A program made the translations under genes and the position numbers. The notes under the pieces were generated by a model that was given only the letters and a program-made list of their open reading frames with translations, did no database searches and was not told the DNA's origin. Below are positions 9,871 through 18,418 of a DNA stretch of 64,000 nucleotides, in pieces. The stretch is from Eledone cirrhosa. Taxonomy: Eukaryota. How positions within the stretch are numbered: the first letter of the stretch is position 1; every line of letters begins with the position of its first letter. The stretch covers positions 236,220,001 through 236,284,000 of the forward strand of contig OZ024742.1 in assembly GCA_964016885.1 (NCBI GenBank). The letters are read 5' to 3'.

Positions 9871-9960
9871 TCCTCTTGATAAGTCGGCAGACCTCGCAAG
9901 GACTCTATATCTTTATGATGTATTGTTTTTGTTTATGCCACGAAACTACGTAGTCGAGGA
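9871..9960 (+). ncRNA. Hammerhead, family D (U3-A8 core variant)
   Basis: Stem I TCCTC/GAGGA; core TTGATAA; stem II GT-C-GGCA/TGCC-AC; GAAA; palindromic stem III ACTACGTAGT; GTC cleavage triplet. Confidence 0.8.
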
Positions 9961-10463
9961 ATCTAGGAGCAGTTTAGGTATGATACATTTTATTACTAAT
10001 TATATCTAAATGTTTCTTCTCTCTTCATAATGTATTTTTAACTCTGATACTGGTTCAGTCTAGTTCAACCGGATTGGTCTGTCCCAGTCATTCATTGAGC
10101 AACATCGGTGAAGTTGTCACCCTTAACTCACGGTTGGGTGCGGATGCATTCATGTATATGTGTGTGTCCACATGTATCTGTGTGTTTCTAAATATATTGT
10201 TAATAACTCCCTCTGGTCGAGCAACCTTTGAAGTGTGGGGACTGCTGAAAAGCTTCCATTACTCATACTTCTCGCCCCCTTCACCACCTCTTCTACGGCT
10301 TCGATATAAATACCCCCTCCGCCTCCGTGGTATTTTCTTCGGGGTTATAAGAGGCTTAGCTCTGTTTCTCGACCGTTATATCGCGTTACTATCTCCCCCT
10401 CCGCCATTTGGGATTCCTTCTCACGTCGTGTAGACGCGTTCTTGAGACTAGTAAAATGAGGTA

Positions 10464-10553
10464 TCCTCTTGATAAGTCGGCAGACCTCGCAAGGACTCTA
10501 TATCTTTATGATGTATTGTTTTTGTTTATGCCACGAAACTACGTAGTCGAGGA
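10464..10553 (+). ncRNA. Hammerhead, family D (second tandem unit)
   Basis: Identical to 9871-9960, 593 bp downstream. Confidence 0.8.
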
Positions 10554-10759
10554 ATCTAGGAGCAGTTTAGGTATGATACATTTTATTACTAATTATATCT
10601 AAATGTTTCTTCTCTCTTCATAATGTATATATGTATATATGTATATACATATATATATATACACACATACATATATATAACGTGTAAAAAGATAGAAGGC
10701 TAAACAATACAAAATGGACTGTAAGATGAGGTAACGAAAAGTAAGTTACCTGGTAATCT

Positions 10760-11230
10760 TTGTTTTATTTTTTGTTGTTCTTTTTCTGTCCAATATTTCG
10801 GGACCCAAAAGTCCCTTGTTCAGGATTTAAGCAACTTTCAATGGAATCTTTGGGATTGTTGTCTCTGGATTGCTTTTTAGATAGTTATCTACGCAGTGAA
10901 GGGCCGGAGTATGCCAATCGTATGTCCAGTCATTGTTTGCGGATAGCCCTGCAGATAGCTCTGGAGATAGTTGTGGTTATGCTTTCGCTGAAATGTGGTA
11001 ATTTCACGGAGCAGGTTTTAGAGGAGGTCTTATGCCTGCGGCGCCTCCAATTCTTAAGACGATTCACTGCGGATGTTGAGTATACGTTCGTCTTCAGTAC
11101 ATCTATGAAGAGAGCAGTGTGAGTGATCTGGTCCTCTGTCTTGCCGCATTTATTCCGGATACTCGTGTGTTCATCATAGTTAAGATGTAAGAAGTTAAAG
11201 CACTCTACGTGATGCAAATCATTCAACGTA
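10760..11230 (-). pseudogene. Penelope-like element (PLE) ORF remnant, RT thumb/linker region
   Basis: Translation FIDVLKTNVYSTSAVNRL...VKLPHFSESITTTISRAI...RKQ*LDIRLAYSGPSLRR*LS resembles the PLE pattern L..NGYP / LPY.SE.IS..I.R.L....IRV....P.L; lies just 3' of the HHR at 11328-11367. Confidence 0.5.
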
Positions 11231-11269
11231 GGTCTGGTATCCCGTAGCTGGTGCAGGAATGGAGGTAAA

Positions 11270-11640
11270 TATTTATTTAAAAAGAACAGAAGGTCGGACT
11301 TGAAATATTCTTTTAATGTTGCAAAAATACAATACGTATTTCTATGACCTAGTTACATCATCAGATCCTTATTTAAGACATTGTCGCTGTCATCAGGTGT
11401 GGGCTGCAAAAGATAAGTGATAACCATCTTACCTAAAAAATAACATCGAATCAAATATATTCTCCATTCTCTGTTTGCCATAATCCTGTTATCGGCTATC
11501 AAATATTGCAATCCACACCCGAAGACGTCACCAAAATCTTACGTCATGATCTGATGATGTAACTAGGGCGTAGAAATACGTATTGTGTTTTTGCCACATT
11601 AAAAGAATATTTTAAGTCCTGCCTTCGGCTGTTTTTAAAT
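11270..11640. ncRNA. Inverted pair of hammerhead-bearing pseudo-LTR-like segments, family E (11328-11367 -, 11548-11587 +)
   Basis: gat CTGATGA tgtaactagg(g/t)c(g/a)ta GAAA TACGTA TT in both arms; arms ~100 bp, diverged. Confidence 0.6.
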
Positions 11641-11702
11641 ATACATAGATACATACATACATACATTTTTCGTTGTGTAAACCGCATGGTTAACTAGCAT
11701 AT

Positions 11703-11764
11703 AACTGCCTCGGTGTTCGGAGTTTCCCGAAGCCAGCTGATGTTATTGCCGCTTCGTTCGTCAA
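11703..11764 (-). ncRNA. Degenerate hammerhead, family S
   Basis: Reverse complement TTGACGA A CGAAGC...GCTTCG G GAAA CT...AG TT; stem I weak. Confidence 0.4.
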
Positions 11765-12159
11765 CCAAATTGAGGGATCAATTTTTAGCGATTACAATCC
11801 CACACTCAGGCAACACACACACACACACACACACACACACACACACACACACACACATATATATATATAAACTTTAGAAAATTAACAAAGAGGGCAAGAA
11901 CGAAAACAAAACAAAACGAAAAACAATTTATTAAGGGGAAACCTTAAAAAATTATTTTAAAGAAATTAAAATACAAATGAAGGACCCGGAACTCCATGAT
12001 CATCGGTCGTTGAGATGGACTTTGGTAGCTTCCATCCCTACCAACGGTATATATATATATGTATATATATGTATATATATATATATATATATATATATGT
12101 ATATATATATATATATATATATATGTATATATATATACCGTTAGTAGGGGTCGAATCTA

Positions 12160-12515
12160 CTAATTGCAAACGAATCGAATGTTATTAATATTCTTAAAAC
12201 TCAGATTACATATATTATATATATATATATATATATATATATATATATATATATATATATATAATAAATGTAATCTGAGTTTTTCGAATATTACTAATAA
12301 CATTCGATTCGTTTGCAATTATGCAAAAAAGCCTCAATTTTATAGCCATGTCAGTAGAATGAACCCTTCATTCTTGCTCTTGTGTTGGCATGTAAACAGC
12401 ACTGCATGAAGGGTTCATTCTACTGACATGGCTTTAAAATTGAGGCTTGTTTGCATAATTGCAAATGAATCGAATGTTATTATTAATATTCGAAATAACT
12501 CAGATTACATTTATT
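12160..12515. repeat. Inverted-repeat element flanked by (TA)n, arms 12265-12372 / 12405-12515; further copies at 12160-12212 and 21388-21495
   Basis: gccatgtcagtagaatgaacccttca / tgaagggttcattctactgacatggc; no convincing HHR core found. Confidence 0.8.
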
Positions 12516-16180: not shown

Positions 16181-16422
16181 ATTTAAATAATATAGCTTGT
16201 TTACAAATTATCTTAAGAGACGAAAGAACGAGATACACACACACACACACACACACACACACACACACACACACACACACACACACACACACACACACAC
16301 ACACACACACATATATATATATATGGGACTCATCGGAATCAATCATTATACAAATAAATACCTCAACAAGTTCATCTCTTCGAACGCACAAAAATTCCGT
16401 AAAATGATTTGTATAATGATTG

Positions 16423-16460
16423 ATTCCGATGAGTCCCACGAGGATGAAACACTTGTAAAT
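16423..16460 (+). ncRNA. Hammerhead motif, family F (CCGATGA core), with inverted partial arm at 16326-16356
   Basis: ATT CCGATGA GTCC CACGA GGAT GAAA C ACTT G TA AAT. Confidence 0.55.
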
Positions 16461-17202
16461 TAAATTATGATGTAAATAAGTGTTTGGTAACATATCTTAA
16501 TGGATAACTTGCTCTACGTGTAAATAATCTAACACAGTAGGAGCTCATATAATTATTTTTTAATTATATGCAGTCGTGTGTACAGTTTATTTTAAGTTAT
16601 CGAATTTTGAGCTGATATAACTTTTTTAACTACACCTTTCCAGCTTTTATATTTGAAAACGAATTTCTTTGGCCTCAGCCGGATGGCTTGGCTGAAACAG
16701 GCAAAAGATTAAAAGAGTGTGTGTGTGTGTGTGTGTGTGTGTGTGTGTGTGTGTGTGTGTGTGTGTGTGTGTGTGTGTGTGTGTGTGTGTGTGTGTGTGT
16801 GTGTGTGTGTGTTGTAGAATTTCACCACATTCTATTTATTATGTAACCCATGTTATACATATTCGATGGTAACTGTCAAGCAATCATCAAATACGATCTC
16901 TTCAGACAGTTCTCGCATTTATAATAGCTGGTATATCAAATACTATTTCTTATTACTTGATATACCAGCTACCAGGCTTAAATTGTTGTTTCGTCATCAT
17001 GTAGCTGACATAGAGTCACCCAAAGATGTTCTTGTTCGCATTCTTACGGAGTGACTGTATATATGTATGTATATATATTTACACATTGGTGCAGTTTCGG
17101 TTACCCACTCTGTATTTATACAAATATAACTTCATCGTATACTTCTGCTTCAATATATATATATATATATATATATATATATATATATATATATATATAT
17201 AT

Positions 17203-17418
17203 AAATAAAGTACCAGTAATGCACTGGGTAATTGTTGACCTTGTGCCTAAAGTAGAAACAATTATTGTATATATATATATATATATATATATATATATAT
17301 ATACAATAATTGTTTCTACTTTAGGCACAAGGCCAGCAATTACCCAGAGTGCATTACTGGTACTTTATTTTATCGACCCCGTAAGGATGAAAGGCAAAGT
17401 TAACCTCGGCAGGATTTG
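17203..17418. mobile_element. Two SINE family 1 3' ends tail-to-tail across a (TA)n tract
   Basis: ...gtagaaacaattattg(TA)n caataattgtttctac... Confidence 0.8.
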
Positions 17419-17424
17419 ATATAT

Positions 17425-17810
17425 ATACAATAATTAGAGGTACACAGATATATGTGTATACATACATATACATGCATATATATACATACATTTTTCACAA
17501 GTATGTGAGATTGTGTGTTGTCAACCTTAACCAGTGTTGCTCTATGACTATGAGAGACAAGATAAACTGTACAGTCGGGAATTTGAAGAAAAAATGGGTA
17601 TTTATTTATGTCTAATATTTCTTCTTTCTTTATAATGTATTACATAGCTCTGATATAGAGTCAATTTAATTATTCCAATTATCTTGTCTCTCATAGTCAT
17701 AGAGCAACACTGGTTAAGGCTGACAACACACAGTCTCACATACTTGTTAAAAATGTATGTGTATATATGCATGTATATGTATGTATACACATATATCTGT
17801 GTACCTCTCA
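17425..17810. repeat. ~135-bp inverted repeat enclosing a copy of 18341-18418
   Basis: gaggtacacagatatatgtg...ctatgagagacaagataa versus ttatcttgtctctcatag...cacatatatctgtgtacctc. Confidence 0.8.
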
Positions 17811-17820
17811 TTATTGTCTC

Positions 17821-18008
17821 GGTGAATTGGCAGTATCGGTAGAGGGTCGGACGCCATGCTTTGACGCATAGAGTTACGGCCCTTGCCATTCTGAGTTCAA
17901 ATCCCGCCGAGGTTAACTTTGGCTTTCATCCTTACGGGGTCGATAAAATATAGTACCAGTAATACGCTGGGTAATTGCTGGCCTTGTGCCAAAAGTAGAA
18001 ACAATTAT
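17821..18008 (+). mobile_element. SINE family 1, full length
   Basis: TGGCAGTATCGG (A box) ... GAGTTCAAATCC (B box) ... gtagaaacaattat. Confidence 0.85.
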
Positions 18009-18013
18009 TGTCT

Positions 18014-18418
18014 ATAACTCCCTCACGGTAGAGTAACCACGGAAGTATAGTGACTGCTTTCAAGCTAATACTATATACCCTTCTAGTCTTCCTTATGTAG
18101 CCTCTGCATCGTATTAATATCCCCTCCGCCTTCTGTGATATTTTTCATTGCTACAAAGGATTTAGCCCCATTTCTTGACCACTGTATCACGTGATAAGGT
18201 CTCCCTCCGCCTTTTCGAGATTCTTTCGCGCGGTGCAGACCTGTTTTGAAATTTTTCCATCAGGTATTCCCTTGAAAAGTCGGCAAACCTCACAAAAATG
18301 TTACATCTCTATGATATAGGATTATTGCATAGTAATTACGTAACTGTACAGTCGGGAATTTGAAGAAAAAATGGGTATTTATTTATGTCTAATATTTCTT
18401 CTTTCTTTATAATGTATT
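18014..18418 (+). mobile_element. Diverged relative of family D with HHR at 18266-18359
   Basis: Collinear with the D unit (ataactccct, cccctccgcc twice); ATTCCC TTGAAAA GTCGGCA...AC GTAA CTGTACAG TC GGGAAT. Confidence 0.7.

Follow-up and report, generated by a model that had tools for sequence, protein, structure and literature searches.

A U3-A8 hammerhead in two subfamilies of a probably Penelope-dependent retroelement from Eledone cirrhosa

The stretch of DNA discussed here, which we call the window, comprises 64,000 nucleotides (nt) of microsatellite-rich animal DNA, with repeats that look octopus-like, from Eledone cirrhosa (assembly GCA_964016885.1, contig OZ024742.1, positions 236,220,001 to 236,284,000, forward strand), and it holds two related repeat families, D and E, each carrying a type I hammerhead motif in which the core pair between positions 3 and 8 is U-A. 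We think it likely that D and E are two subfamilies of a Penelope-dependent retroelement of about 590 nt that has no open reading frame (ORF) and carries a hammerhead of the type found in Penelope-like elements (PLEs), with a compensatory U3-A8 pair. The hammerhead anatomy, the covariation between the stems of D and E, an intact E hammerhead in the majority letters of a public sequencing run, tandem and inverted insertions beside (TA)n and a fixed 3' end can all be read directly in the sequence. Papers are cited below by their PubMed Central numbers, and from excerpts.

Two families with a U3-A8 hammerhead

A descriptor scan of both strands placed U3-A8 type I hammerhead motifs at six sites, and a pattern specific to the family added two more, so that family D is represented in the window by seven copies and family E by one, which is diverged:

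9871-9960, plus strand: family D hammerhead with the U3-A8 core at 9876-9882, a 59-nt stem II region and a palindromic stem III; predicted cut after C17 at 9955
10464-10553, plus strand: second D hammerhead, identical to the first and 593 nt downstream; predicted cut after 10548
9563-9652, minus strand: D hammerhead within an inverted arm, whose stem III palindrome has one change without compensation
52570-52657, minus strand: D hammerhead (descriptor scan)
53160-53247, minus strand: D hammerhead with a stem I mismatch (family pattern)
53750-53837, minus strand: D hammerhead with a stem I mismatch (family pattern)
54103-54190, plus strand: D hammerhead, intact, in the inverted arm of the second D insertion
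18266-18359, plus strand: family E hammerhead with U3-A8; the window copy is decayed (A13U, base of stem II broken), the sequencing-run majority intact

The scan verified the family D motif, and the letters are as the original prediction gave them. At 9871-9960, stem I (TCCTC/GAGGA) is followed by the core TTGATAA, GAAA and the stem III palindrome ACTACGTAGT, so that D does carry the U3-A8 core pair; at 18266-18359, E keeps that pair (TTGAAAA) and has changed both stem I (ATTCCC/GGGAAT) and the palindrome of stem III (ACTGTACAGT) with pairing preserved. The warning that a search for CUGANGA alone would miss this family was also well founded. All seven D copies have the full hammerhead core set (N3-U4-G5-A6-N7-N8-A9, G12-A13-A14, A15.1-U16.1, H17 and a Watson-Crick 3-8 pair), from which the window copy of E departs through A13U and which the run majority regains at position 13. 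Three helices surround the core, with helix I open, and they are intact in four of the seven D copies. The family motif matches eight times in the window and never in 100 shuffles, a contrast that expresses copy number and not significance because the pattern was built from these same copies.

Outside the window, pattern scans returned no match in genome contigs, none in viral contigs and none in phage, and the five matches in metagenomes, each with only 1-2 base pairs (bp) of stem I, we take as chance.

Covariation between the families

The homology of E to D extends over about 430 nt by blastn, independently of structure. Across the 20 positions of stems I and III the two families differ at eight, and all eight lie within four compensated pairs of the ten. 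When eight substitutions were placed at random on those 20 sites, with varied transition bias, the share of trials in which all pairs stayed Watson-Crick was 2e-5 to 3e-4, rising to 3e-4 to 1e-2 when G-U pairs were also allowed. A formal count on five distinct rows gave five pairs changed on both sides, all from E, a value reached in three of 500 shuffles. The four central bases of the palindrome, which would form the loop in a monomer, all differ between D and E, yet the palindrome is kept. Read from the aligned letters, the covariation between D and E is real and lies in stems I and III; it rests on one pairwise comparison.

The original prediction had gone further and held that covariation in the window supports the core variant itself. 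Positions 3 and 8 are identical in D and E, so the covariation speaks for helices I and III, where that claim stands, and not for the 3-8 pair, where it does not. Six hammerheads of other repeat families in the window display the alternative pair, C3-G8. Nor is the variant new: U3-A8 hammerheads are already published in the PLEs of Schistosoma and among natural hammerheads (PMC4209133, PMC3088659, in the parts available). The core swap itself is published and to be expected, and only the 57-61-nt stem II and the size of the unit are unusual.

A decayed copy and the sequencing-run majority

The window copy of E is a poor representative of its family. Besides A13U, at a position that belongs to the consensus hammerhead core in the excerpts of PMC3088659, two pairs at the base of its stem II are broken and two more are weakened to G-U, and a fold constrained to the hammerhead reaches -6.6 kcal/mol, against -22.5 for D. 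Contigs from public sequencing runs were aligned to E (18012-18415) at 80% likeness, and one run, which is also the best match to D, contributed 373 contigs; the other three of the four runs gave no contigs on E at that likeness, which is no proof of absence. No RNA run was among those listed for D, which says nothing about expression.

In this run the majority letter at 18341 is A (703.3 of 709.7 depth, 14 contigs), restoring A13; the majority at 18335-18337 (378-403 of 403-414 depth) restores three stem II pairs, and that at 18324 (1343 of 1435 depth) an inner pair of the same stem. Among the 40 of 61 variant rows listed, in which the lowest share is about 0.26, there is no variant at U3 (18272), at A8 (18277), in stem III or in the 3' arm of stem I. 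The majority at 18270 is T (2871 of 3369 depth), from which the window copy differs, and one of the four double changes therefore shrinks: the pair 18270-18355 is probably U-G in the run majority, intermediate between the U-A of D and the C-G of the window copy.

These contigs show E to be a genuine subfamily of multiple copies whose predicted U3-A8 hammerhead is intact, and the window copy is a case of private decay. A reading of E as a novel A13U core variant was rejected, since 703 of 710 depth has A. The support that the original prediction drew from this diverged relative holds for its stems I and III; its core and stem II are broken in the window and are rescued only by the run majority. 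A single genomic copy can mislead, and here the copy cited as support is the dead one. Four clustered private changes of E, at 18332-18344, create overlapping palindromes and may have arisen in a single template switch instead of by four point mutations.

The repeat unit and its insertions

The hammerheads sit in three insertions, whose parts are as follows:

9851-10628, plus strand: partial tandem of D (a 593-nt unit plus 185 nt), with no conserved ORF, running 80 nt beyond the cut site up to (TA)n
9488-9836, minus strand: inverted 5' arm of the first D insertion, with 5 differences in 349 nt and the same element end site
52495-53844, minus strand: second D insertion, in which a 590-nt unit is repeated 2.3 times in tandem and three hammerheads occur
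53844-54431, plus strand: inverted arm of the second D insertion
17565-18417, plus strand: partial tandem of E, colinear with D and about 66-70% identical
17427-17565, minus strand: inverted 5' arm belonging to the E insertion; it matches 17679-17817 at 96% identity
17820-18013, strand not assigned: high-copy repeat that interrupts E and is accompanied by a 10-nt duplication (17810-17819, 18004-18013)

The spacing of the hammerheads gives unit lengths of 593, 590 and 583 nt in the three insertions, the last being the 777 nt between the stem III copies of E after subtraction of the 194-nt inserted repeat, which looks SINE-like (resembling a short interspersed element). All three insertions combine a partial tandem with an inverted 5' arm and lie beside (TA)n or AT-rich sequence. 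Three of the four D insertion ends (9488, 10628 and 52495) coincide at a single position 80 nt 3' of C17; the remaining one (54431) lies at an AT-rich site, and in the E insertion about 64 nt separate C17 from the end. PLEs are marked by partial tandems, 5' inversions and microsatellite targets, and non-autonomous forms of them have been described (PMC8557442, in part); the traits of a non-autonomous PLE derivative (partial tandems, an inverted 5'-truncated copy, microsatellite or AT-rich targets and a fixed 3' end) are present in all three insertions. Unit lengths, fixed ends, tandems, inversions and targets together support a PLE-derived element.

A coding frame in the unit was considered and rejected, since D and E share no reading frame and the longest ORF of the unit, of 149 codons, has no Pfam match under E 0.29. 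An autonomous Penelope-like element was likewise set aside, as the single ORF with reverse transcriptase (RT) and GIY-YIG domains between pseudo-long terminal repeats (pLTRs) is not present in the 590-593-nt units.

The tandem units at 52495-53844 are 99.9% identical, and a stem I mismatch is found in units 2 and 3 and in neither unit 1 nor the inverted arm, a pattern that suggests a later duplication or a multimeric template.

RNA folding and a proposed mechanism

The stem III palindrome does not fold on itself and forms a 10-bp duplex (-12.9 and -13.4 kcal/mol); indeed, two D copies co-fold, unconstrained, into the full double hammerhead (-60.9 kcal/mol). For the tandem RNA the double hammerhead fold, at -220.7 kcal/mol, is 10.6 kcal/mol better than two monomer folds (-210.1). 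In the minimum-energy fold a downstream hairpin occupies the 3' arm of stem I:

9956-10026, plus strand: predicted hairpin just 3' of the cut site, competing for the 3' arm of stem I and stopping about 9 nt before the insertion-end site

Between D and E, none of the 21 pairs of this hairpin shows a double change, and in the upstream part of the unit seven of 61 pairs do, with many pairs broken. The monomer is also well folded when treated as a circle (z = -4.0, 40 shuffles).

From these features we infer a cycle in which tandem transcripts would pair two hammerheads through the 10-bp palindromic stem III, and the double hammerhead would cut after C17, slowly, because the downstream hairpin competes for stem I, and probably with the help of a protein; slow or protein-assisted cleavage fits a double fold that is less stable than the minimum-energy one. 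Cleavage could free monomers of about 590 nt. The RT-endonuclease of an autonomous PLE would nick AT-rich DNA, and reverse transcription of uncut multimers or circles would begin at an internal point of the RNA, some 80 nt 3' of the cut site, giving rise to the tandem and inverted copies. Since the insertions reach 80 nt past the cut site, the template would not be a linear cut monomer, and an uncut multimer or a circle with an internal start is what the ends point to.

Weighing the interpretations

Several observations weigh against a Penelope-dependent element with a working hammerhead. Stem changes without compensation are found in three of the seven D copies (in stem III in one, in stem I in two), and the core of the window E copy reads G12-U13-A14-A15 (GTAA) where G12-A13-A14-A15 is needed. 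The overall covariation score is unexceptional (75 of 500 shuffles, on five distinct rows with one informative lineage), and support from covariation comes from two lineages and one public run, possibly the window's own source. The letters of the run contigs are unphased, the variant listing covers 40 of 61 rows, and depth is not copy number. The minimum-energy fold of the tandem RNA (-227.5 kcal/mol) is not the hammerhead, the double fold lying 6.8 kcal/mol above it; stem II, at 57-61 nt, greatly exceeds in length the 7-8 bp given for Schistosoma PLE hammerheads in the excerpts of PMC4209133; and the window yielded no autonomous partner bearing a D-like hammerhead. The cleavage and RNA steps are drawn from sequence and prediction, and for Poseidon of Anolis, cleavage is described as dispensable for insertion in vitro (PMC11167929, excerpts).

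A rival view has the hammerhead fold retained for protein binding or as a template structure, with negligible cleavage in vivo. Hammerhead mutants of Anolis Poseidon still insert, its ribozyme needs protein, and RNA-seq ends are absent at its cut site (PMC11167929, in the same excerpts); here, the insertion ends past C17 imply a template that is not a linear cut RNA, and the minimum-energy fold sequesters stem I. We nevertheless consider this view unlikely, as the catalytic positions, among them A13 and both members of the 3-8 pair, are preserved in the run majority, which would be best explained by selection for catalysis.

Could the unit instead be only the pLTR of an autonomous PLE, with the insertions being its 5'-truncated tandems and not a separate non-autonomous family? 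Such 5'-truncated partial tandems are typical of PLEs (PMC8557442, in part), and a PLE ORF remnant (10855-11262) adjoins the first D insertion. That remnant lies on the strand opposite to the tandem, with (TA)n in between; three independent insertions share a common unit length and junction, E being colinear with D across it; and the two families have neither a common frame nor, in the longest ORF of the unit, a credible domain. We judge this explanation improbable.

That a repeat carries a hammerhead-like pattern by chance is hardly credible and is largely refuted by the run majority, which restores exactly the broken core and stem positions of E, as the covariation simulation also argues: it is true that a loose descriptor, weak evidence when used alone, finds strict U3-A8 matches in four of 20 block-shuffled windows (in one of 20 with GAAA), and that Rfam has no family at its gathering threshold in the window and, among 94 sub-threshold matches in 9400-18500, no hammerhead, but at that threshold Rfam also misses the window's six C3-G8 hammerheads, and the test does not discriminate.

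Comparison with known systems

The closest parallels to the hammerhead are in Cercyon of Schistosoma mansoni, for which the available parts of PMC4209133 report about 1,300 hits of U3-A8 PLE hammerheads, with the cores UUGAUAA and UUGAAAA in the supplement. D and E share with these the type I topology, U3-A8, both cores, a helix I of 4-5 bp, G10.1-C11.1, a palindromic helix III and opposite-strand pairs 100-700 bp apart; they differ in a 10-nt stem III palindrome, in the longer stem II already mentioned, in the lack of an extra 9/10.1 base in D and in a unit without an ORF. Slow or protein-assisted cleavage has been reported for PLE hammerheads (PMC4209133, PMC11167929, excerpts). More generally, C3-G8 covaries to U3-A8 in several natural hammerheads, and activity in vitro had been shown earlier (PMC3088659); the excerpted passages of that paper draw no tie to this element or its host.

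In Anolis Poseidon, reverse transcription starts at 111-118 nt and the cut site lies 26 nt into the ORF, which places the two 85-92 nt apart (PMC11167929, excerpts). A fixed distance of insertion ends 3' of the cut site (80 nt here) and AT-rich targets are thus shared with Poseidon, which differs in being autonomous, in its C3-G8 pair and in an ORF that starts in stem II. Metazoan non-LTR retrozymes (lacking long terminal repeats), at 170-400 nt, have canonical hammerheads and demonstrated circular RNAs (PMC7229834, in part). They have in common with D and E tandem repeats without an ORF, a type I hammerhead, low GC and a well-folded monomer; D and E, known from their sequence, are set apart by the PLE-type U3-A8 hammerhead, PLE-type inversions and a unit of 583-593 nt, and on this length an assignment to the metazoan non-LTR retrozymes was rejected.

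The paper searches, which left subscription journals, Repbase and Dfam uncovered, found no report of the D/E family in octopus and no description under C3U/G8A; the family may already have an entry in one of those sources. As the role of hammerheads in PLEs is unsettled (PMC8557442, PMC11167929, excerpts), a small element without an ORF, with fixed ends, two subfamilies and a well-formed dimeric hammerhead, lends itself to asking whether cleavage and circularisation matter. A bolder idea, which we offer only tentatively, is that D and E form a long-lived retrozyme-like family bridging PLEs and retrozymes, in which circles without an ORF, a dimeric U3-A8 hammerhead of PLE type, a conserved stem II of 57-61 nt, a hairpin that sequesters stem I and so switches cleavage, and a Penelope RT start 80 nt past the cut would all belong together; if true, D and E would allow one to test directly whether circular templates arise through PLE hammerheads.

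Neighbouring features

The ORF remnant beside the first D insertion is itself of PLE type:

10855-11262, minus strand: decayed PLE-type ORF piece covering the part that separates RT from GIY-YIG; the D insertion is 230 nt away

No match to this piece was found in Pfam, by word search or in the Atlas, and it was identified only through similar proteins, 51-52% identical to it, which carry weak RVT_1 and GIY-YIG matches below the Pfam cut-offs. Because of this resemblance, PLEs with a C-terminal endonuclease would seem once to have been present in this genome; to D, the piece is known here as a neighbour. It has a 5' inversion of its own (11269-11409 and 11506-11646).

Fragments of non-LTR retrotransposon C-termini lie at 21481-21966 (plus strand), 22349-22759 (minus) and 23320-24216 (minus), two of them with weak zf-RVT matches below the cut-off. 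The regions 12900-15300 and 55300-56450 hold decayed DNA-transposon-like ORF pieces, which by their translations look hAT-like and mariner-like. The microRNA matches of the Rfam scan are spurious and stem from short inverted repeats centred on (TA)n or on short spacers (11975-12500, 16323-16439 and 17209-17364).

The six hammerheads with the ordinary C3-G8 core are also of type I, at 30-100 (minus), 33066-33136 (plus), 44556-44617 (minus), 45009-45070 (plus), 45789-45861 (minus) and 59911-59969 (minus), with an 8-nt palindromic stem III and stem II regions of 27-36 nt, in repeat families other than D and E. At 44504-45122 an inverted pair of hammerheads flanks a 132-nt tandem array with 97% matches.

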